Shown one piece after another: positions 24,019-49,140 of a stretch of 64,000 bases of DNA. The notes beneath the pieces were generated by a model. That model worked only from the letters and a program-made list of their open reading frames with translations. It was not told the origin of the DNA and made no database searches. This DNA is from Dehalococcoidia bacterium. GTDB taxonomy: Bacteria > Chloroflexota > Dehalococcoidia > UBA2979. The stretch is taken from positions 254,445-318,444 of the forward strand of contig CBDAOL010000009.1 of NCBI GenBank assembly GCA_965198045.1, in the 5' to 3' direction. A program made the position numbers and the translations under genes. Position 1 is the stretch's first letter; each line of letters begins with the position of its first letter.

Positions 24019-25188
24019 TCACCGTTCGTAGACGACGCCCCCGGTGCGGTGGGCTGCGATGTAGTCGTGGCCGATCTCAACGCCAAGGCCCGGCCCCTCG
24101 GGCGGCTGCACGCAACCCTGATCGTCGATGGACTCGAGCTGCTCCTCGTAGTTGAGGAACACCGGCGGCCGCGACAGCTTCAGCCGAGGGTGCACCAGGC
24201 CCATCTCGTAGTAGTTCGTGTTGCGGATCGCGGCCATCAAGTGCCGGCGCGTCGGGCCGGGTGAGTGCAGTTCCGCGTCGAGGCCGAAGCCCTCAGCGGC
24301 GTGCGCCACCTTGAGGCCGCCCGTGATGCCGCCGTCGTAATCGGGGTCGACCCGCACGAAGTCGGTACCGTCCGCGACGATGAAATCGACGTGCATCTCC
24401 ACGCCTCGGATGTGCTCGGTCTGAAGCAGCGGCGTGCTGATCAGCTGTCGCAGCTTCCGGTGACCGAACGCCGAGACGCCGCCGTCGCGGTAGGGATCCT
24501 CGAGCCAGAGATAGCCGTACTCGTCGCATGCCTTGCCGACCTTGTAGGCGTCGGCGAACGTCATGAGCGTGCTCGCCGGGTCGAGCATCATGTCCATCTT
24601 CCCGCCGACCCGCTTCGCCACGGCCTCTAGGAGGTCGAGCCGCTTCTGGAGGGTCGCGTCGCGCCACCAGTGGATCTTGTACGCGGGGTAGCCCATCTCC
24701 AGGCACTGCTCGGCGAAGTCGGCATAGGCCTCGGGCGTGCTCAGGCCATCGGGCTCGTCGTCTCCCACCGTCGTGCTGGCGTAGCACGGGAGGTCGGTGC
24801 GGAACTCGCCGAGCAGCTGGTAGACCGGTGCGTCGAAGAACTTGCCGGCGATGTCCCAGAGCGCCATGTCGACCTGCGACATCCCCATCCGCGCCTGTTG
24901 CTTCAGCGACAGCTTGGCGTCGTTGTAGAAGCGTTCGCGTGCCAGCGCGCTGCGCCCGAGCAACGCATGCGCGACGTTGGCCACGCCCGCGAGTTCCGAG
25001 GCGTTCCCACCCACGTATTCGCCGGTGATGCCAAGGTCCGTCTCGACGGACAGCAGACGCCCGGTCCGCGTAAGCGTGCCACCCTTGCGATACATCGGCA
25101 TGCGTGTCTCGCGGTGCGGTTCGATGTCCTGGAGCTCGTAGCTGAACTCGGTGATCTCGATCTTCGTGACGATCGGGGGCTGATCCAT
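24019..25188 (-). CDS. enolase-superfamily enzyme (mandelate racemase / muconate lactonizing enzyme family)
   Basis: Capping domain plus TIM-barrel with acidic metal ligands (...MDMMLDPASTL..., ...LWLEDPY...). Confidence 0.8.
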   Translation of the reverse strand: MDQPPIVTKIEITEFSYELQDIEPHRETRMPMYRKGGTLTRTGRLLSVETDLGITGEYVGGNASELAGVANVAHALLGRSALARERFYNDAKLSLKQQARMGMSQVDMALWDIAGKFFDAPVYQLLGEFRTDLPCYASTTVGDDEPDGLSTPEAYADFAEQCLEMGYPAYKIHWWRDATLQKRLDLLEAVAKRVGGKMDMMLDPASTLMTFADAYKVGKACDEYGYLWLEDPYRDGGVSAFGHRKLRQLISTPLLQTEHIRGVEMHVDFIVADGTDFVRVDPDYDGGITGGLKVAHAAEGFGLDAELHSPGPTRRHLMAAIRNTNYYEMGLVHPRLKLSRPPVFLNYEEQLESIDDQGCVQPPEGPGLGVEIGHDYIAAHRTGGVVYER

Positions 25189-25244
25189 GGTTCGACTCCG
25201 TGCTGCGAGTGATCTGTGGCATCAGCGCACCCTAGCGGAGTCTG

Positions 25245-39455: not shown

Positions 39456-39923
39456 GTGGCGATGAGTCTGAGCATGACGCGAGCCGAGCGAGAGCAGTTC
39501 CTGGCCGACGTGCACGTCGGCTTCGTAAGTGTCGAGGAGTCGGGGCGCGGTCCCCTCGCGGTGCCGATCTGGTACTCGTACGAGGTGGGCGGCGATCTGT
39601 ACTTCGGCACGGGCGCCGGGTCACAGAAGGCGCGGCTGTTCAACGCCGCGGGCCGGGCGACGCTCGTAGCGCAGACCGAGACCGCGCCGTACCAGTACGT
39701 GAGCGTCGAAGGCCCGATCCGCGTCTACGAGGGAGCGCTGCCCGAGCCACCGATGCCGGTGCGATACCTCGGCGAGGAGGCGGGCCGCGCCTACATCGCG
39801 AATCAGGGCGGTGGTGGCAGCGGCGTCACGTACGCCCTCACGCCTGAACGCTGGACTACTCGAAGCGCTAGCGCGAGGCCGGCCGGCGGCCGCGCCCGGC
39901 TGGAGACGCAAGGGAACCACCGG
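39456..39923 (+). CDS. PPOX-class F420-dependent enzyme family protein (no stop codon before the following gene)
   Basis: ...VGFVSVEESGRGPLAVPIWYSYEVGGDLYFGTGAGSQKARL... split-barrel family. The frame continues uninterrupted into the downstream AKR. Confidence 0.6.
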
Positions 39924-40956
39924 ATGCTCGATTCCATCCAGCTCGGTCGCAATAGCGGTCTCTTGGTCTCCGAGCTCTGCCTCGGCACGATGAACTTCGG
40001 CGAGCCGGGCCGAGGCCATCAGGGCGACTGGACGCTGGACATCGACCAGGCCCGACCGATCTTCAAGTCGGCGATCGAGCAGGGGCTCTACTACTTCGAT
40101 TGCGCCGATGTGTACGGGCAGGGCGCCTGCGAGCGTGTCGTGGGCTCGCTGCTGCGCGAGCTGGCCCCTCGCGATCAGTACGTGATCGCCACCAAGATCT
40201 CGGGGGCGATGGGCGAGCACCTGAATCAGCGAGGGCTCTCCCGCAAGCACATCATGGAAGCGGTCGACGCCAGCCTCGAACGGCTCGGGCTCGACTACGT
40301 CGACCACCTCGTCATCCACCGCCACCCGCACGGCGTACGGGGCAGCCTAGAGGTGCCGATCGAGGAGACGCTCGAGGGCCTGCACGATGTGGTGAAAGCC
40401 GGGCAAGGTGTTATACCTCGGCGCCTCGTCGATGTTCGCGTGGCAGTTCGCGGAGCTGCAGCACACGGCCGAGCAACATGGCTGGACGAAATTCGTCTCG
40501 ATGCAGAACCACTACAACCTCGTCTATCGCGAGGAGGAGCGAGAGATGAACCCCTACGCGCCGAAGACCGGCGTGGCGCTGATGCCGTGGTCACCCCTCG
40601 CGCGCGGCATCCTCACCGGCTCGTATCAGGGCGGCTTCGACGAGGGCGCTACCGACCGCTCGCAGGGGCGAGATCGGATGCGGACCGAGAGCCTCTACCA
40701 CGGCGCGGCGACGTTCCAGATTGCCGATCGCGTGGCCGAGGTCGCGCAGAAGTACGAGAAGGCGCCGGCGCAGATCGCGCTCGCCTGGCTGGCGAACAAA
40801 CCGGAGATCACCGCTCCGGTGGTCGGCGTCTCGAAAGTCTCGCAGCTGGAACAGCTCGTCGAGGCCACGGACATCACGCTCGCCGACGAGGATGTGACCT
40901 ATCTCGAGGAGCTCTACCAGCCGGTCGAGAACTTGCTCTCGTTCGGGACCTCGTAG
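39924..40956 (+). CDS. aldo/keto reductase, disrupted by a 1-bp insertion near 40398
   Basis: Own RBS (AAGGGA) plus ATG at 39924. N-terminal AKR motifs up to ...LHDVVKAGQ. C-terminal AKR part (...LYLGASSMFAWQ...) is in the next frame (ORF 40408..40956). gccgGGcaagg has an extra g relative to the expected ...AGKVLYLG. Confidence 0.7.
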
Positions 40957-40998
40957 CGCCGCCCGAGACGCACACGGGTGGCCGGGGTGAGCGGGCGC

Positions 40999-42063
40999 CT
41001 AGGGCTGGTCGTAGACGATGATCGAGCGGCCCTCGATCTCGCCGTTCTCCAGCGCACGCACGCCCTCGTTGATCTGGTCGAGGTTGTCGTACCTCGTCGA
41101 CACGAGCTTCTCGAGGGGCAGCTTGCCCTCCTTGAACCACTCGATGTAGTTTGGCATGACGTGACCCGGCCGCGCTGAACCGCCCATCGAGCCAATGATG
41201 GAGCGCTCGCCGAAGGGGAACAGGCGCGGCAGCGGCAGGTCGCCCTGGCCGATGCCAACGATGACGGCGGTACCGCCTCGGCGGACCCCGAGCACGCCCG
41301 ACTTCACGCTCTCGACGGACTGCAGGAACGCCGCTTCAACGCCGATGGCGTCGAAGGCATAGTCGACGCCGCCACCGGTGAGTTCCTTCACGGCATCGGG
41401 GGCGTGGACCTCTGAACCATTCACCGTGTGCGTGGCGCCCAGCTCCCTCGCGTAGCCGAGCTTCCCCTCCTCGAGGTCGACCGCGATGATCGGGTCAGCG
41501 CCGGCGATCTTCGCGCCAGCCACGACGTTGGCGCCCACCCCACCGACGCCGAACACCGCGACGGAGTCTCCCGGCTGCAGCTCGGCGGTGTACAGCGCCG
41601 CGCCCGCACCGGTGATCACGGCGCAGCCGACGATCGCCGTGATATCGGTCGGCACATCGTCGGGCAGCGGCACGACCATCTGCTCGTTCAGCAGCGCATG
41701 CTCGGCCCAGGTGTAGACGCCGGCCTCGTACTCCTCGCCCTGCCAGCGGTACTTCGTGCGATCCGCGGTGGTCATGCCCTCGGGCAGGTCGCGCGGCACG
41801 AACTGGATCATCACGCGCTCGCCCTCGCTGACGTGCTCGACCTTCGAGCCAGCCTTGAGCACCACGCCGGTGCCTTCGTGGCCGAGGAGGGTGGGGACAG
41901 GGCCGTCGGGGTTGTGGATCTGGTGTAACTGCGAGTGGCAAATGCCGGTCGCGAACAGCTTGACCAGCACTTCCTCGTCGCCGGGGTCTTCGAGCTCGAT
42001 CTCGTCCACCAGCAGCGGCTCGCCGAACTTGGCTTTGATCGCCGCGCGTGTCTTGGTCGTCAT
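40999..42063 (-). CDS. class III-type zinc-dependent alcohol dehydrogenase (formaldehyde/thiol-dependent dehydrogenase-like)
   Basis: GICHSQLH...GHEGTGVV... catalytic Zn ligands and a GVGGVG Rossmann. Start trimmed to the ATG at 42063 after GAGGAGG. Confidence 0.8.
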   Translation of the reverse strand: MTTKTRAAIKAKFGEPLLVDEIELEDPGDEEVLVKLFATGICHSQLHQIHNPDGPVPTLLGHEGTGVVLKAGSKVEHVSEGERVMIQFVPRDLPEGMTTADRTKYRWQGEEYEAGVYTWAEHALLNEQMVVPLPDDVPTDITAIVGCAVITGAGAALYTAELQPGDSVAVFGVGGVGANVVAGAKIAGADPIIAVDLEEGKLGYARELGATHTVNGSEVHAPDAVKELTGGGVDYAFDAIGVEAAFLQSVESVKSGVLGVRRGGTAVIVGIGQGDLPLPRLFPFGERSIIGSMGGSARPGHVMPNYIEWFKEGKLPLEKLVSTRYDNLDQINEGVRALENGEIEGRSIIVYDQP

Positions 42064-42443: not shown

Positions 42444-43148
42444 CTACCGGCTCGCGTTCTCCTGCAGGACTCGCTCGTCGCTGAGCAGCACCAGGCCGAG
42501 GCAGCGTCCGGCCTCGCTCGGTTCGCGCGCGGTCAGGATGACCCGCTGGTAGCGGGTGTCGCGCAGGCCCTCGACGAGGTCGTGGAGGAACGTGTCCGGC
42601 TTCTCTGTCCCCGGCGCCGTGCGCATCACCTCGCCGATCTCGGTATCGGGATCGACGTCCGCCGGCATGCCGTCGACCCGTCCGAGGAGCACCCCTCGCT
42701 CGTCGACGACGAGGCAGAGGTCGAGCGGTGCATCGGTCATCTCAGGAGCCACGTCGCGGATCCGCCGGTCGGGTGGGACGGTGAGCACGTCCGTGCGCGC
42801 GACGTCGATCGCACGCCGGCGGCCGGCGGTCCGGCCCTCGGTCGGCAGCCCGTGGATCGCCCAGTCGGCCTTACCCGGGGCGTAGTCGTAGACGCTGGCG
42901 AATCCGAGGCTTTCGAGCCGCGCCGCGGCTCGTGGGCTGGCGTCTCACTCCAGGTCGTAGCAATAGACGATGATCGGCTGTGCGCGGTCGAGGTGCGCAG
43001 TGGTGTTGGCCGCAATCTCGGCCAGCGGGACGTTCACCGCGCCGAGTAGATGCTCCTCGGCGAACTCCTCGCGCGCGAGTGCCTCGAGGAGCTGCGCCCC
43101 ATCAGCGAGCATTCGCTGGACCTGGCCACGGTCGATCACCGCCGGCAT
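42444..43148 (-). CDS. rhodanese-domain plus CBS-domain ORF interrupted by one in-frame TGA (42945..42947) at or near the rhodanese catalytic loop
   Basis: Track ORFs 42945..43148 (rhodanese N-terminal part ...PIIVYCYDLE*) and 42444..42788 (CBS-like) are in the same frame. The 156 nt between them translate without stops to DASPRAAARLESLGFASVYDYAPGKADWAIHGLPTEG..., a typical rhodanese C-terminal half. Confidence 0.55.
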
Positions 43149-43175: not shown

Positions 43176-44834
43176 CTAGACGCCGAACTCCTGCAGCCGC
43201 TCCTGGACGAAGTTGACGGCCATCGCACCCTCGTTCACGGCCGTGACCACGCGCTTCGTATTGCCGTGACGGACGTCACCGCTGACGTACACGCCGGGCA
43301 GGCTCGTCTCGAGCAGGTACGGCTCACGGTCGAGCGGCCAGGCGTGCTCCGCGCCCTGCAGGTCGTGACCCGCGAGCACGAACCCACGCTCATCCCGGGC
43401 GACGAGGTCGCCCAACCACTCGGTTCCCGGCTTCGCGCCGACGAAGATGAAGAGCGCGTTCGCCGCCGCTGTCTCCTCCTGTCCCGTGTCCGAGTGCGCG
43501 AGCGCCAGGGATTCGAGGTTCCTCGTCCCGTTGGCCTGCTTGATCTCGGTGTTCAGCATCACGTGGATGTTCTCGCCCGCATGGATCCGCTCAACGAGGT
43601 AGTTCGCCATGCTTTTGCCGAGCGAGTCGCCGCGCACGAGGATCGTCACGGAGTTGGCGAATTGCGCGAAGTAGAGTGCCGCCTGGCCCGCCGAGTTCGC
43701 GCCGCCGGCGATGAATACATCCTCGCCGCGGATCGACCGCCCCTCGATCATGGCTGCTCCGTAGTAGACGCCCGCGCCGGTGAGCTCGGCGACGCCGGGC
43801 TGCTCCAGCCGGCGGTACTCGACGCCCGTCGCGACCAGCACGGAGTAGCTCCGCAGCTCAGCGCCGTCGGCGAGCCTCACGCCGCGGTAGGAATCTGCTG
43901 CTGTCAATTCAACGACCTCGGACGTCGACAGGAACTCGGCGCCCAGCCGGGTCGCCTGCGTCACGGCCCGTCGTGCCAGGTCGCCGCCGGAGAGCCCGAC
44001 CGGAAATCCGAGGTAGTTCTCGATGCGGGCGCTCATGCCGGCCTGACCGCCGGGCGCTTCGCGCTCGATGATGAGGGTGCGGAGCCCAGCCGCCGCGCCG
44101 TAGACGCCGGCTGAGAGGCCCGCGGGCCCTCCACCGACGACGATCAGGTCGTAGAATGGCTGCTCCGCCTGCGTCCGCAGCCCCAGCTGCTCCGCGATGT
44201 CGCGGTTGTTCGGAGCCTCGAGGGCGACGCCGTCGGGGAACACGACCAGCGGCAGCGTCGGGTTCGGCTTCGCGACCCGCTCGAGGACGGCTGCGACGTC
44301 CTCGTCGCTATCGATGTCGAGCCAGCGGAACGGCACCTGGTTGCGCGCCAGGAAGTCCTTGACCGCATGCGAATCAGGCGACCAGCGGTCGCAGATGACG
44401 CGCACGCCTTCGAACGGTGGATGGAACGAGGCCTGCCAATCGTCGAGCAGGTCGTCGAGCGTGGGGTAGAGCCGCTCCTCCGGCGGGTCCCAGGGCTTCA
44501 TCAAGTAGTGGTCCAGGCGCACATCGTTGATCGCCCTGATGGCCACGTCGGTGTCGGCGTAGGCGGTCAGCAGCGTGCGCTTCGCCTCGGGGTAGACCTC
44601 GGCCACCCGGTCGAGGAACTCGATACCGGTCATGCCCGGCATGCGCTGGTCCGAGAGGAAGAGCGCGATCGCATCGCCACGGTTGCGCAGCTCCTCGGCC
44701 AGGCTCAGACCCTCGGCGCCGGAGTCAACGCCCATGATCCGGTAGTCGTCGCCGTAGTGGACGCGCAGGTCCTGCTGAACGGAGCTGAGCACGGACTGAT
44801 CGTCGTCGATGCTCAGCAGAACCGGTTTGTTCAT
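43176..44834 (-). CDS. response-regulator receiver (REC) domain fused to a thioredoxin-fold domain and a cysteine-free thioredoxin-reductase-like FAD/NAD(P) oxidoreductase
   Basis: N-terminal REC (conserved Asp in ...FLSDQRMPGMTG..., ...LLTAY...), a middle Trx-like segment with a single Cys (VICDRWSPDS), and a C-terminal TrxB-like two-Rossmann flavoprotein (DLIVVGGGPAGLSAG...) with no CxxC. Confidence 0.75.
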   Translation of the reverse strand: MNKPVLLSIDDDQSVLSSVQQDLRVHYGDDYRIMGVDSGAEGLSLAEELRNRGDAIALFLSDQRMPGMTGIEFLDRVAEVYPEAKRTLLTAYADTDVAIRAINDVRLDHYLMKPWDPPEERLYPTLDDLLDDWQASFHPPFEGVRVICDRWSPDSHAVKDFLARNQVPFRWLDIDSDEDVAAVLERVAKPNPTLPLVVFPDGVALEAPNNRDIAEQLGLRTQAEQPFYDLIVVGGGPAGLSAGVYGAAAGLRTLIIEREAPGGQAGMSARIENYLGFPVGLSGGDLARRAVTQATRLGAEFLSTSEVVELTAADSYRGVRLADGAELRSYSVLVATGVEYRRLEQPGVAELTGAGVYYGAAMIEGRSIRGEDVFIAGGANSAGQAALYFAQFANSVTILVRGDSLGKSMANYLVERIHAGENIHVMLNTEIKQANGTRNLESLALAHSDTGQEETAAANALFIFVGAKPGTEWLGDLVARDERGFVLAGHDLQGAEHAWPLDREPYLLETSLPGVYVSGDVRHGNTKRVVTAVNEGAMAVNFVQERLQEFGV

Positions 44835-46646
44835 CAGGCGCCCTCCTGCTGCGCTCCTAGCTCGGGTGGTCCCGCCAACGGTAGTCGCACCTGGAACCGG
44901 GTGTCGCCGGGCTCGGAGTGGACCTCGATGCTGCCGCCGGAGCGGTCCGTCACGATGCGCCTGACCACGTCGAGGCCCAGGCCAGTCCCCTGGCCCACCT
45001 CCTTCGTGGTGAAGAACGGGTCGAAGATGCGTGACTGGATCTCGACCGGGACGCCCGGCCCGTCGTCGCAGATCTCGACAAGCGCGTGATCGCCATCGAG
45101 GGCGGTACGCAAAGTGATCCCTCCCTCCGAGCCGACGGCGTCGATGGCGTTGTCGAGCAAGTTCGTCCAGACCTGGTTCAGCTCGCCAGCGAGGACTGAG
45201 AACTCCGGGATCTGCGGGTCGAAGTCGCGGACGATCTCGACGTTGTCGCCCAGCTTGTGCCGCAGGATGCGCAGCGTGCTCTCAAGCCCTTCGTGGATGT
45301 CGACCTCCTGCTGGGCCGCCTGGTCCATGTAGGAGTAGCTCTTCACCGCCCCGACGAGCTCCGACATGCTCGTCTTCGTCGTGAGCGTGCCGAGGAGTTC
45401 GCCGGCCGTGAGCGATTCGCTCAGCCAGGCCACTGCCGAGGGCACGGCTGACCCGGGCATGCCCGCCGTCACTTCCTCCAGGGTCGATCCCTCGATGCCC
45501 GCGGCGACGAGCGGAGGTGCGAGCTGCCACGCGTTGTCGACGTTGTGCGAGCCGAGCCAGCCCGCCAGCTCCTCCTCGCGGTCGGCCCGTTCGAGGGCGC
45601 TCAGCGTCGCCGAGGTTGCCGCGTCGACCTCGACCGCGCGCGCGAGCCCCGCCCACTGCTCCGTCGTCAGCCCCTGCTCGCCCAGCTGAACGGCCGCAAC
45701 CGAGAGACGTTCGAGGGTGTCGCGAAGCTGCGACGAGGCTCGTTGCGCGGCCGCGGCCGGGTTGTTGAGCTCGTGTGCGAGCCCAGCGGAGAGCTTACCC
45801 AGCGCGGCCAGTTTCTCGCTCTGACGCAACTCCTCCTCCGCCTGTTCGCGCTCGGTCGAGTCGAAGAATGCGACGACGCAGCCGGCCAGTTCGCCGTTTA
45901 CTCGCAACGGCGAGGCCCAGTACTCCGCCGGGAAGCTCGTGCCGTCAGACCGCCAGACGATCTCGTCGCGGACGTTCGTGTCCCGGTCCTCGCGGAACGC
46001 CTGGTAGATGCGGCAGTCCTCGACGGGGTAGTGCCCGCCGGTCGGACGCGCGTGGTGGATCAGCTCGTGCGCGTTGCGACCGAGCAGCTCCGCGTCGCTC
46101 TCGTAGCCAAGCAGTGCGACACAGGCGGGGTTCGCGAACGTGAAGTCGCCGTTCATATCGGTACCGTAGATGCCCTCGCCGGTGGCGTTCAGCAGCGCGC
46201 GCACCATCGCTTCCTGTTCGTGGATCTCCGCCTCGGCCGCCAGGCGTTCGCTGATGTCGACGAACGAGACGACGCTGCCGATCAGGTGATCCTCGTGGCG
46301 CACCGGGTACGACCAGTACTCGACGGGGCGTGCCATCCGCGCGCCAAACGATCTCGTCGCCGAGGTGCATGCCGCGTTCCTCGCGGTGCGCCTGGTAGAT
46401 CTGGCAGTCTTCGACTGGATAGGGCTCGCCGTCCTGCCGCGTGTGGTGGATCAACTGGTGCATGTTGTGTCCGAGCAGCTCCGCCTCGGTTTCATAGCCG
46501 AGCAGCTCGACGCAGGCCGGATTCGCGAACGTGCAATCACCGTCGAGGTCGACGCCGTAGACGCCCTGGCCGGTGGCGTTGAGGAGCGAGCTGACCAGCT
46601 GCTCGCTGTGTTCGAGTTCGTGGGCTGGCTGTTGGCTCGAAGTCAT
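44834..46646 (-). CDS. PAS-PAS sensor histidine kinase, frameshift near 46337
   Basis: Two homologous PAS domains (...NATGQGVYGVDLDGDCTFANPACVELLGYETEAELLG... and ...NATGEGIYGTDMNGDFTFANPACVALLGYESDAELLG...). HisKA (LSAGLAHELNNP) and HATPase (DDGPGVP...GTGLGL) follow. PAS1 is in track ORF 45945..46646, in a different frame from the rest. Confidence 0.75.
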
Positions 46647-46891: not shown

Positions 46892-47542
46892 CTAGCTCCC
46901 GATCTCAGCGACCGCCTCGTCGGTCGTCATCACCGCGCTCGCGATGAATCGGAAGTTCGTCATCGCCGCCTCGTAGCCGCCGCCCAGTTCGGGGTGCTGG
47001 GCCGCGGCCGTCGCGTCGGCGACCACCGCGACCTCGAAGCCGTCCTCCGTCAGCTCGCGCAGATGCGCCTCTGTGCAGAGGTTGGCCGACATGCCGGCGA
47101 GCAGGATGTTGGTCTTCCCGCGCTTGCGAAGCTGCAGCGCAAGGTCGATCGACTCCGGCCCATACACCTTGTGCGGGCCCGCGATGACGGTCTTGCCGTC
47201 CTCGATCAGCGGCTTGTATTGCTCGAGCCAGCCGGCGCCCGAGCCCTCGAAGCCGTCAGTCGTGAGCGAGCCCTTGCGGTCGAACATGCCGATCTCGTGC
47301 ATCATCTGCTCGACGGTGCTGCCGAACTCCCAGCCCGAGTCGGTCGGGTAGTAGTAGTGCGGTGAGATGAACACGTCGTAGCCGTTGGCCGTCGCGGCCG
47401 ACATCAGTTGTTCGATGTGTTCAACGGTCCCGTGCTCCTCGACGCTGGCGCCCACGAGCCCCCAGGTGACGCCCTCGGGACTGAGGAAGTCGTTCTGCGG
47501 ATCAGTGATCACGATCGCGGTGTTACCGCTGCTGATGTCCAT
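46892..47542 (-). CDS. isochorismatase-family hydrolase
   Basis: ...NTAIVITDPQNDF... and a Cys-containing ...LLAGMSANLCTE... isochorismatase-like catalytic region. Start trimmed to the ATG after AGGGGG; the upstream part of the track ORF is Arg-rich non-coding-looking. Confidence 0.7.
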   Translation of the reverse strand: MDISSGNTAIVITDPQNDFLSPEGVTWGLVGASVEEHGTVEHIEQLMSAATANGYDVFISPHYYYPTDSGWEFGSTVEQMMHEIGMFDRKGSLTTDGFEGSGAGWLEQYKPLIEDGKTVIAGPHKVYGPESIDLALQLRKRGKTNILLAGMSANLCTEAHLRELTEDGFEVAVVADATAAAQHPELGGGYEAAMTNFRFIASAVMTTDEAVAEIGS

Positions 47543-47652: not shown

Positions 47653-48807
47653 CTACGGCCAGAGCGCGAGCAGTTCGCGCTCCACGTCCTCCTTCTCGCG
47701 TCGGTAGGACGCGCTCGGCGGATCCATCGCGACGCTCGGCGCAGGCAAGCCGTAGAAGTCGCCGCCAGCGTGTGCGGCCAGCCCTCCGCCGAGTTCGACG
47801 TAGCATTCGCCGCGCCCGGAGAACACGGTCGATTCGCCGTCGCCGGTCAGTTCTGCCGCGATCGCCGTCGCGACCACGCGCCCCTGGGCGTCGGCGAAGA
47901 CGCCCGCCTTCGGCAAGTACATGCCGTTCGCGAGTCTGATCGCGGTGGCGTCACCGATGGCGAACACGCGCTCGAAGCGGGTCGCGAGGGTCTGCGCGTC
48001 AACCGGCACCCAGCCCGAGGCATCGGCGAGCCCCGCCTCTTTCAGGACCGGGGGCACCACGTGCGGCGGCACCCCCACGAGGAGGTCGAACGTGGTGTCG
48101 TGCAGTTCGAACAGGATCCGACTGGCCGCCGGATCGATCTTCATCGCGATCTGCTCCCAGTGGAGTTCGATGCCCCGCTCCTCGAGCATCTCGATCAACG
48201 CCGTCCCGATGTGCTCACCGGCCACCAGCATCGGACGGTCTTCCGGTGTGTAGAGCGCCAGCTCCGTCTGATCACGCACCCCGCGCTCGCGGAGCAGGGA
48301 GTCGATCATGAAGGCCGCCTCGTACGGTGCGGCCGGGCAGGAGTAAGGCGTGCGAGCGATCAGGATCACCAGCCGCCTTCCAGTGAAGTCCTGGAGGGCA
48401 CGCTGGATGTCCTCTGCGCCGTCCCACTCGTAGAGGTTGTGCGCAGCCTCGGCGAAGCCGGGCACGGCATCGGCATCCCGCTTGGCGCCGAGGGCGACGC
48501 AGAGGTAGTCGCCCTCGAAGGTGCCGGCCGAGGTCTCGACGGTGCGTGCGCTCGGGTCGATCGCCGTGACCTCCGCCTCCACCACCTCGATACCGAGAGC
48601 GGCCAGGTCGGCGAGTGAACGCTCGCCCTCGCTCCGGTCGGCGCGCTCGCCCGTCATCACCCAGAGCTTCGACAGGCCGGCCGCGAAGCGCTGCTCTCGC
48701 TCGATCACCACGATGCGGTGGTCGTCCGGCGTCAGCCGGCGCAGCTGGGTCGCGAGGGTGAGCCCGCCGATCCCTCCGCCGAGCACCAATGTTGTCGCGT
48801 CGGCCAC
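47653..48807 (-). CDS. sulfide:quinone oxidoreductase-like FAD-dependent pyridine-nucleotide-disulfide oxidoreductase
   Basis: N-terminal FAD GxGxxG (LVLGGGIGGLTLA). Conserved Cys in ...TPYSCPAAPYEA... and ...GRGECYVELGG.... C-terminal amphipathic tail. SQR versus type-II NADH dehydrogenase cannot be resolved by eye. Confidence 0.5.
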   Translation of the reverse strand: MADATTLVLGGGIGGLTLATQLRRLTPDDHRIVVIEREQRFAAGLSKLWVMTGERADRSEGERSLADLAALGIEVVEAEVTAIDPSARTVETSAGTFEGDYLCVALGAKRDADAVPGFAEAAHNLYEWDGAEDIQRALQDFTGRRLVILIARTPYSCPAAPYEAAFMIDSLLRERGVRDQTELALYTPEDRPMLVAGEHIGTALIEMLEERGIELHWEQIAMKIDPAASRILFELHDTTFDLLVGVPPHVVPPVLKEAGLADASGWVPVDAQTLATRFERVFAIGDATAIRLANGMYLPKAGVFADAQGRVVATAIAAELTGDGESTVFSGRGECYVELGGGLAAHAGGDFYGLPAPSVAMDPPSASYRREKEDVERELLALWP

Positions 48808-48816
48808 GCCGGGCTC

Positions 48817-49140
48817 CTATCCGAAGCTCACAACCCGATCCGCTTCTTCAGTCAGCCGTACGAGGTCGTCCATGGTGGACATCGGACAGAGGGCGCTCGC
48901 GTCCATCTCCCGAAGGCGCAGGCAGGTACCGCAGCTCAGCGCGACGCCCCCCAGCTCATCGAACCGGACGAGCAACGACTGGACGTCGAAGCGCTCGCTT
49001 CCCATCTGCTCGATGTCGACGGCCTGCCCGAGCAGGAACGCGCTCACCTCATGCCAACGCGAGAGCGCGGCGGAACCGAAGCGGAACGCGTTCCACACGG
49101 TCTCAGTCTCGTCCGTGTTGATCACCAAGGCGTAATTCAT
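48817..49140 (-). CDS. DsrE/DsrF-like sulfur-relay family protein
   Basis: 107 aa; ...VALSCGTCLRLREMD... Cys-containing DsrE-like motif. 9 nt upstream of the SQR-like gene. Confidence 0.6.
   Translation of the reverse strand: MNYALVINTDETETVWNAFRFGSAALSRWHEVSAFLLGQAVDIEQMGSERFDVQSLLVRFDELGGVALSCGTCLRLREMDASALCPMSTMDDLVRLTEEADRVVSFG

Follow-up and report, generated by a model that had tools for sequence, protein, structure and literature searches.

A TrxB-type response regulator without redox cysteines in its glutaredoxin-like and thioredoxin reductase-like domains

The window analysed here is a stretch of 64,000 nucleotides (nt) from the assembly of a Dehalococcoidia bacterium (GCA_965198045.1, contig CBDAOL010000009.1), and its gene at 43176..44834 on the minus strand encodes a response regulator of 552 amino acids (aa). 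Judged by its motifs, the protein belongs to the TrxB-type response regulators; its receiver (REC) domain is intact, and the motifs for flavin and nicotinamide nucleotide are retained. The family is very large, catalogued and uncharacterised, and the protein is no rarity. Among the new points are the clade-wide loss of the CxxC of thioredoxin reductase (TrxR), together with a glutaredoxin (Grx)-like domain that carries SxxS; neither is stated in the literature found on the TrxB class.

A receiver fused to a flavoprotein module without redox cysteines

The gene and its parts are as follows.

43176..44834, minus strand: gene of the 552-aa TrxB-type response regulator, from the list of open reading frames (ORFs), the Pfam and NCBIfam domains and homologs of 57-96% identity
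44472..44825, minus strand: REC domain, aa 4-121 (PF00072), with the acidic pocket D10/D11/D12 and with D62, T90 and K113
44412..44471, minus strand: conserved helical linker between the REC and Grx-like domains, aa 122-141, LYPTLDDLLDDWQASF, with an invariant W133
44169..44411, minus strand: glutaredoxin-fold domain, aa 142-222, redox cysteines absent (Pfam Glutaredoxin, topology of the predicted structure, motif conservation)
43179..44159, minus strand: TrxR-like two-Rossmann FAD/NAD(P)H domain, aa 226-552, free of cysteine (Pyr_redox_2)

The Pfam search gave the order REC, glutaredoxin fold and TrxR-like FAD/NAD(P)H domain, with matches to Response_reg at 7-118 (E=3.9e-14; 53 bits against a cutoff of 30), to Glutaredoxin (PF00462) at 153-199, which is weak yet above threshold (26.4 bits against 22.9), and to Pyr_redox_2 at 228-536 (E=1.9e-32). 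This bears out the architecture of the original prediction, namely a receiver, a thioredoxin-type fold and a cysteine-free TrxB-like domain. Careful alignment also located the phospho-acceptor aspartate of the receiver: in BLASTP against CheY, D57 pairs with D62 (codon 44649-44651) and K109 with K113, and D10, D11, D12, D62, T90 and K113 are invariant in an alignment of 52 family members, whose mean column identity is 75%. The linker that follows the receiver is confined to REC-fused forms. Relatives with an N-terminal domain for cyclic nucleotide monophosphates (cNMP) can be aligned only from about aa 142.

The sole cysteine of the protein is C148, and the TrxR-like part has none. A thioredoxin-fold linker with a single cysteine had been predicted; the count was right, but the residue is idiosyncratic and off the motif. 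It stands three residues before W-S-P-D-S, is replaced by glycine in 98 of 119 close relatives, and was rejected as a redox residue on these grounds. The true Grx motif is the cysteine-free SxxS of W151-S-P-D-S155-H (codons 44370-44384), found where WCPDC is expected, so that the CPYC/CxxS active site of glutaredoxins at the N-terminus of helix 1 is absent. Both serines of the motif are kept in at least 90% of family members, as are W151, H156 and P195, the last of these, an invariant residue, being the putative cis-proline ahead of strand 3.

In the TrxR-like domain, the predicted absence of a redox-active CxxC was confirmed. The site is occupied by Y357-Y-G-A-A-M-I-E364 (codons 43743-43766), and the 'YCAA-CDG' of solved TrxRs falls opposite 'YYGAAMIEG' of the response regulator. 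The CxxC is missing from 149 of 150 diverse representatives of the clade, taken at no more than 50% identity, and these share the signatures G.GV[YF]YGA..EA, GG[GA]NSAGQAA and VRG..L...MS. It was likewise found in the TrxR-like part of none of 120 homologs from Streptomyces, Kitasatospora and Catenulispora (558-565 aa), which share the cysteine-less signature HRWSARS, GxGVYYGS and GGANSAGQAA. A survey of cysteine columns in the clade alignment found no other column conserved family-wide. Two candidates for a hidden catalytic cysteine were rejected: column 329 is a non-catalytic position that is cysteine in E. coli TrxR as well, and column 368 is cysteine in only 38% of the diverse representatives and in none of the lineage of the query.

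The sole exception among the 150 representatives, P0173, is a stand-alone metagenomic protein of 407 aa that retains all four cysteines, with WCPDC, FCATCDG and the canonical GGGNSAAEEG. It is 42% identical to the module of the response regulator and aligns with it motif by motif, WSPDS lying residue for residue opposite WCPDC. As a Grx-TrxR fusion that is presumably active, P0173 is likely to resemble the clade ancestor. Since it keeps all four cysteines, the clade looks, at the level of sequence, to be derived from a redox-competent Grx-TrxR fusion that subsequently lost them.

The gene is genuine, and strong purifying selection acts on it. With the ortholog at L001, a locus on a metagenomic contig of 2.99 Mb whose response regulator is 96% identical, its ratio of nonsynonymous to synonymous substitution rates (dN/dS) is 0.08; with the ortholog at L007, which is 80% identical, the ratio is 0.18. 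Nucleotide alignment with the L001 ortholog showed no indels in the gene. Hence, a sequencing artefact, which the original prediction had named as a possible cause of the missing cysteines, was rejected on the intact gene, the dN/dS values and the clade-wide loss. An AGGAGG lies 7 nt 5' of the ATG, and the GC content of about 68-69% is unremarkable.

The cofactor sites have fared differently from the cysteines. The FAD motifs GGGPAG, E257, GGQ, IENY, G337 and G519-D520 are invariant in the 52-member alignment, and the residues G234/G236/G239, G262-G263-Q264, G337 and G519-D520 agree with the GxGxxG, GGQ, ATG and GD motifs at the FAD site of TrxR. The NAD(P)H motif GGANSAGQ is mostly invariant, as is R401, and in the diverse representative set too the FAD and NAD(P)H motifs, including GG[GA]NSAGQAA and R401, are at least 90% conserved. 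Such conservation of dinucleotide motifs across phyla argues for retained cofactor chemistry. The NAD(P)H region departs from the classical form, since it reads GGANSAGQAA, with VRGDSLGKSM where TrxR has HRRDxxR. The second glycine of GxGxxA is alanine in the response regulator and glycine or alanine across the family, and the HRR is down to the single R401. Beside the former CxxC, where TrxR has its acid catalyst, the acidic E364 is invariant. The invariants specific to the clade comprise Y357, Y358, E364, Q384, R401, M409-S410, W499, R503, E509, R522, K527 and R528. A family-specific insertion of about 20 aa, WPLDREPYLLET, stands ahead of the GD motif. Named enzyme models were not reached: the protein scores 211.8 bits with the NCBIfam thioredoxin-reductase equivalog TIGR01292 (cutoff 343.45) and 147 bits with the AhpF model TIGR03140 (cutoff 503), and the mycoredoxin model gives 36 bits on the Grx-like domain, under its cutoff.

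A structure was predicted with AlphaFold 2 from the 52-sequence alignment (mean pLDDT 82.5, pTM 0.67). In this model, aa 144-217 adopt the classic glutaredoxin order beta-alpha-beta-alpha-beta-beta-alpha, in which helix 1 opens with WSPDS and P195 precedes strand 3; the linker forms helices at 118-121 and 123-136, and the chain stops right after the last TrxR helix (529-550 of 552). Foldseek against the PDB returned TrxRs. The best superposition was obtained with the flavin-reducing (FR) conformation of Lactococcus lactis TrxR 5mh4 (TMt 0.90, rmsd 2.8 Å), while structures in the flavin-oxidizing conformation gave a TMt of about 0.6; the model as predicted is thus in FR geometry. By sequence, too, the closest solved relatives are canonical TrxRs, and since the best of these matches is at 1e-46, there is no solved structure within the clade.

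Family spread, partner kinase and neighbouring genes

The homologs of the response regulator number in the thousands. A search of 5.8 billion proteins gave 120 full-length matches of about 553 aa and 57-96% identity, from cyanobacteria, Rubrobacter, other Actinomycetota and Bipolaricaulia, usually named 'FAD-dependent oxidoreductase', 'response regulator' or 'thioredoxin reductase (NADPH)'. The distribution of the fusion, which the original prediction had asked to be mapped, proved to be wide: a scan of GTDB species genomes gave at least 600 loci in at least 600 species, with Cyanobacteria, Chloroflexota, Acidobacteriota, Bacteroidota, Gemmatimonadota, Actinomycetota, Planctomycetota and Dormibacterota among the phyla, and one gammaproteobacterium. 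An identity of about 57% is maintained across phyla.

When the module alone (aa 131-552) was searched against 1.84 billion cluster representatives and the best 150, which are 38-57% identical, were classified, about 64 had the order REC, Grx-like and TrxR-like, about 48 had a cNMP-binding domain in place of REC, about 28 consisted of the Grx-like and TrxR-like domains alone and about 11 of the TrxR-like domain only. This swapping of REC, a cNMP-binding domain or nothing at the N-terminus is a pattern typical of regulated enzymatic output domains.

The most constant neighbour is a histidine kinase. An adjoining kinase of one homologous family was found at 71 of 80 loci, directly downstream on the same strand in 51 and directly upstream in 16. 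The usual family kinase has 450-470 aa, a cNMP_binding domain, a DHp domain with 'AALGK.SAGLAHELNNPAAA' and HATPase_c; the kinase of the window has the DHp/CA core of the family, but two PAS domains in front. Its two ORFs are given below.

44834..46336, minus strand: 3' ORF of the kinase, 500 aa, with the end of PAS1, PAS2, DHp (H-box SAGLAHELNNPAAA) and HATPase_c; its TGA overlaps the ATG of the response regulator
45945..46646, minus strand: 5' ORF of the kinase, 233 aa, with PAS1 in the other frame; genuine coding only down to about 46328

The predicted overlap of the start codon with the stop of the upstream kinase was verified; the two codons share one base (TGATG). The kinase itself was described as a PAS-PAS histidine kinase. 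The pairing is conserved, as stated above, but the gene is not intact in the window. Six-frame translation and blastn against L001 showed that the gene has lost 5 nt, and with them its frame, at about 46327-46328 in comparison with the 93%-identical ortholog; the alignment there, from L001 to the window, reads GGCACGAGCTGTCCC -> GGCACG--C---CCC. The L001 ortholog is an intact single PAS-PAS-HATPase_c protein of 606 aa with the same stop/start overlap.

A second frame break lies at most about 6 kb away, in an aldo-keto reductase gene (about 40399, plus strand) with a 1-nt insertion relative to L001; this gene is split into ORFs 39456-41021 and 40408-40956, and an upstream PNPOx-like ORF runs into it. 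The two disruptions are either real pseudogenisation or truncation, or assembly error. At L007 (4157-6004), the orthologous kinase was called as three fragments (320, 99 and 157 aa), and hence kinase disruption or indel-prone assembly is recurrent in metagenomic contigs of this lineage.

The CAP-like cNMP_binding sensor of the usual partner kinase was seen at L003 (9674-11056), L006 (3924-5333), L087 and about 45 other loci. In the L003 kinase, the arginine of the phosphate-binding cassette is seemingly absent by eye (GEISLLTGRPAIAT), and therefore the ligand of this sensor may not be a cyclic nucleotide.

Apart from the kinase, the neighbourhood of the response regulator in the window includes the following genes.

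42444..43148, minus strand: rhodanese-CBS gene, about 234 aa, with an in-frame TGA at 42945-42947; same operon, after a gap of 27 nt behind the response regulator gene
46892..47542, minus strand: isochorismatase-family gene (PF00857) upstream of the kinase; lineage-specific (window, L001, L005, L007)

The rhodanese-CBS gene is a candidate selenoprotein gene. Gene callers split its frame into a 67-aa rhodanese and a separate CBS protein, and its closest relatives are annotated merely as C-terminal fragments. When the TGA is read through, a complete Rhodanese domain followed by CBS is obtained in the Pfam search. The TGA is kept in the orthologs of L001 (11689-12396), L002 (2637-3344) and the more divergent L007 (7703-8428), while the flanking codons differ, and purifying selection acts on the codons beyond it (dN/dS 0.11-0.25). 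In 103 of 112 full-length rhodanese-CBS homologs, the TGA column holds a cysteine, within the motif VYC-x-D-x-x-C-D-x-SPRAA (C-x4-C). The TGA thus probably encodes selenocysteine, which would give a C-x4-U motif; selenoproteins of the rhodanese type are known from surveys of marine metagenomes. As for a bacterial selenocysteine insertion sequence, a conserved 8-bp hairpin 15 nt past the TGA did not exceed shuffled GC-rich sequence in stability (z about -0.5). No tRNA-Sec was found within the window: an ARAGORN 'tRNA-???' at 25134-25211 (plus strand) with the four-base anticodon cgtg was not detected by the Rfam tRNA model and is probably a false positive in GC-rich DNA.

Upstream of the cluster of isochorismatase, kinase, response regulator and rhodanese genes, an SQR-like flavoprotein (47653-48807, minus strand; Pyr_redox_2 and FCSD_central) and a DsrE-family protein (48817-49140, minus strand) are encoded. 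The same arrangement is present in L001 and lends the neighbourhood a flavour of sulfur metabolism. Among the 80 loci, minor recurrent neighbours were zf-UBP (11), EgtD/EgtB (6-7) and a LuxR-type response regulator (7). EgtB-like (DinB_2 and FGE-sulfatase) and EgtD-like (Methyltransf_33) genes were seen at L006 (7810-10623), L072 and other Acidobacteriota loci; the family copy of L006 is flanked by thioredoxin and glutaredoxin genes, and the zf-UBP protein is small.

Possible functions of the module

With no redox-active disulfide in the protein, electrons cannot pass in the manner of TrxR through a dithiol to thioredoxin or to any disulfide. Among the 80 loci, no DNA-binding regulator was found consistently near family members, and the flavoprotein module is therefore taken to be the output. 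The explanation that we favour, at somewhat less than an even chance, is that a dedicated two-component pair may end in this response regulator, which would work as an NAD(P)H:acceptor flavoenzyme gated by phosphorylation. In such a scheme, the kinase would phosphorylate D62, and the phosphorylated receiver would act, via the helical linker and a pseudo-substrate-like Grx domain, on the arrangement of the flavoprotein dimer or its domains. The rearrangement would include a rotation of the NAD(P)H domain and would gate hydride transfer from NAD(P)H through FAD to a non-disulfide acceptor, for which O2, a quinone, a metal chelate, a small redox protein and possibly sulfane-sulfur species are candidates. 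In the cNMP-fused forms, ligand binding would take the gating role. The product of a pathway with such an output would be a changed redox reaction and not transcription. The original prediction of a catalytic output, an NAD(P)H:acceptor reductase, thus gains from the invariant cofactor motifs but is only plausible, as a role without catalysis competes with it.

Several points weigh against the gated flavoenzyme. The cognate kinase is frameshifted in the window. The alanine in place of the second glycine and the lone arginine in place of HRR make nucleotide binding and specificity uncertain, and the FAD loop 260-282, the most conserved segment, was modelled at very low confidence. Why a simple diaphorase should strictly conserve a Grx domain without cysteines is difficult to see. 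The acceptor substrate cannot be named from sequence or context: beyond the kinase, none of the 80 loci revealed a conserved neighbour that would name it, and the other neighbours vary by lineage (isochorismatase, glyoxalase, rhodanese-CBS, Trx/Grx, EgtB/EgtD, zf-UBP). In addition, the expression data come from SCO7298 of Streptomyces coelicolor, whose membership of the cysteine-less clade, although very probable, is inferred from Streptomyces homologs.

The main rival is that the module may be a pseudoenzyme or sensor, which would hold FAD and NAD(P)(H) as ligands only and would signal through conformation or protein-protein contacts, integrating phosphorylation with redox state. We regard this as possible, though unlikely to be the answer. 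It better explains why donor and acceptor CxxC were lost together while the Grx fold stayed highly conserved; the changes of cysteine to serine resemble classical dead-enzyme substitutions, no substrate-related neighbour is conserved at the 80 loci, and the position of the module, C-terminal to sensory or regulatory domains, is one that many signalling pseudoenzymes share. However, cofactor motifs usually decay in pseudoenzymes, and across phyla no part of this protein is better conserved than the motifs of its two Rossmann folds. Apart from the kinase, neither a conserved interaction partner nor a DNA-binding output is encoded in the vicinity.

A further proposal would make the protein a ferredoxin/flavodoxin-NAD(P)+ oxidoreductase (FNR) of the TrxR type, as in Bacillus subtilis YumC or Chlorobaculum, placed under two-component control. 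Such FNRs are known TrxR-fold enzymes without the cysteines and are among the solved relatives (3ab1 at 7.7e-20, 2zbw, 5xhu, 5twb); at the former CxxC position, they have what we take to be an aromatic pair, HY in YumC, where the response regulator has YY. Against this, the matches of the protein to canonical TrxRs (1e-46) are much closer than those to FNRs (1e-20 or weaker), and its NAD(P)H motifs NSAGQAA and VRG...MS are unlike those of both. The chain ends too early to accommodate the C-terminal FAD-stacking extension, a Grx-like domain is absent from FNRs, and at the 80 loci neither ferredoxin nor flavodoxin genes recur as conserved neighbours. Membership of the TrxR-type FNRs was rejected on similarity and on the absent extension, and we consider the proposal improbable.

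It is very improbable, in our estimate, that the protein is a disulfide or persulfide reductase that borrows a thiol or selenol from a partner, here the selenocysteine/cysteine rhodanese-CBS and elsewhere a thioredoxin or glutaredoxin. The rhodanese-CBS gene with its C-x4-U in the same operon, the DsrE and SQR-like genes upstream, the Trx, Grx and EgtB/EgtD neighbours in L006 and Acidobacteria, and the reported induction of SCO7298 by polysulfide (PMC9952706) would all suit such a role. But the rhodanese neighbour is limited, among about 85 loci, to a narrow lineage (window, L001/L002, L007), and about 60% of the diverse family members have no cysteine at any semi-conserved position. To our knowledge, no flavoprotein disulfide reductase works without at least one cysteine of its own, which also counts against it.

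Finally, a canonical NADPH-thioredoxin reductase under phosphorylation control, or a decaying or artefactual gene, is scarcely credible: the JGI name 'thioredoxin reductase (NADPH)', the best PDB matches to TrxRs and the assembly frameshifts in two neighbouring genes point that way, but the clade-wide absence of the CxxC, the score far below the TIGR01292 cutoff and the intact, indel-free gene under purifying selection exclude a canonical TrxR as far as can be read from the sequence.

Returning to the gated flavoenzyme and its main rival, a broader hypothesis, which we regard as possible, though unlikely, would unite the TrxB-type response regulators with their cNMP-fused sisters in a single large clade that arose from Grx-TrxR fusions, lost all four redox cysteines and kept the FAD and NAD(P)H sites. 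The clade would then be an unrecognised class of signalling output, either a non-thiol flavoenzyme gated by phosphorylation or ligand or a pseudoenzyme that senses flavin and NAD(P)H; in the present lineage, the module might cooperate with the selenocysteine rhodanese-CBS.

Significance and relation to known systems

The output class of response regulators that combines REC with Pyr_redox_2, called 'TrxB', has already been catalogued (PMC5847659, PMC9953108, PMC9739842) and is a standard class in surveys based on P2CS/P2RP (PMC9953108). In S. coelicolor, the kinase SCO7297 is the partner of the TrxB-type regulator SCO7298, neither of them named (PMC9739842); SCO7298 ('trxB3') was also reported to be induced by acid shock (PMC2631018). 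No biochemical or structural study of the REC-TrxB or the cNMP-fused TrxR-like family was found, the literature giving census listings and the expression data on SCO7298. The earlier statement that the architecture is present in databases yet biochemically uncharacterised therefore holds.

TrxB is one of the few output classes of response regulators that are still wholly uncharacterised, and the chemistry of the family would show signalling wired straight into a redox reaction, bypassing transcription. The label 'thioredoxin reductase (NADPH)', carried by hundreds of genomes (Streptomyces, Nostoc/Anabaena and Chitinophaga included), is a misannotation, because the proteins have no means of dithiol-disulfide exchange. 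It misleads reconstructions of redox networks, as in an S. coelicolor paper that counts "trxB3" in the thioredoxin system. The swap of REC and cNMP-binding domains, together with the surviving redox-competent relative, provides an evolutionary frame and makes the function of TrxB regulators directly testable.

Compared with the TrxB-type response regulators of Galperin and P2CS/P2RP, the protein of the window matches in architecture and in the adjacent kinase, and no essential difference was seen; only its partner kinase differs, having PAS-PAS sensors instead of the commoner cNMP-binding sensor and being frameshifted. With the low-molecular-weight TrxRs (TrxB, TIGR01292; 7jyp, 7aaw, 1tde), it has the fold and the FAD motifs in common at about 30-38% identity. 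Those enzymes have CxxC, NSAVEEA and HRRDxxR, whereas the response regulator has no CxxC, NSAGQAA, VRG...MS, the insertion of about 20 aa and the additional REC and Grx-like domains. The TrxR-type FNRs (YumC, and 3ab1 of Chlorobaculum tepidum) also lack the cysteines on a TrxR fold and use NAD(P)H to reduce an acceptor other than a disulfide; they are more distant, however, with a C-terminal FAD-stacking extension and neither Grx-like nor REC domains, and the response regulator is the opposite on both counts.

Among fusions of a thioredoxin fold with TrxR (AhpF, NTRC, P0173), the order of an N-terminal Trx/Grx fold followed by the TrxR module matches that of AhpF and P0173. In these proteins, the CxxC motifs of both domains shuttle electrons, whereas in the response regulator all four cysteines are gone and an intramolecular dithiol relay is impossible. 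AhpF, moreover, has a double N-terminal thioredoxin fold in contrast to the one Grx fold without redox cysteines found here, and superposition of the whole chains is poor (rmsd 18-25 Å). The sister architecture within the clade is that of the proteins with cNMP-binding, Grx-like and TrxR-like domains, whose name at NCBI we take to be 'cyclic nucleotide-binding domain-containing thioredoxin-disulfide reductase'. They have the same cysteine-less module and the same signature motifs, but with an N-terminal cNMP-binding domain instead of REC and without the REC-specific linker helix, they represent the one-component version of the protein described here.

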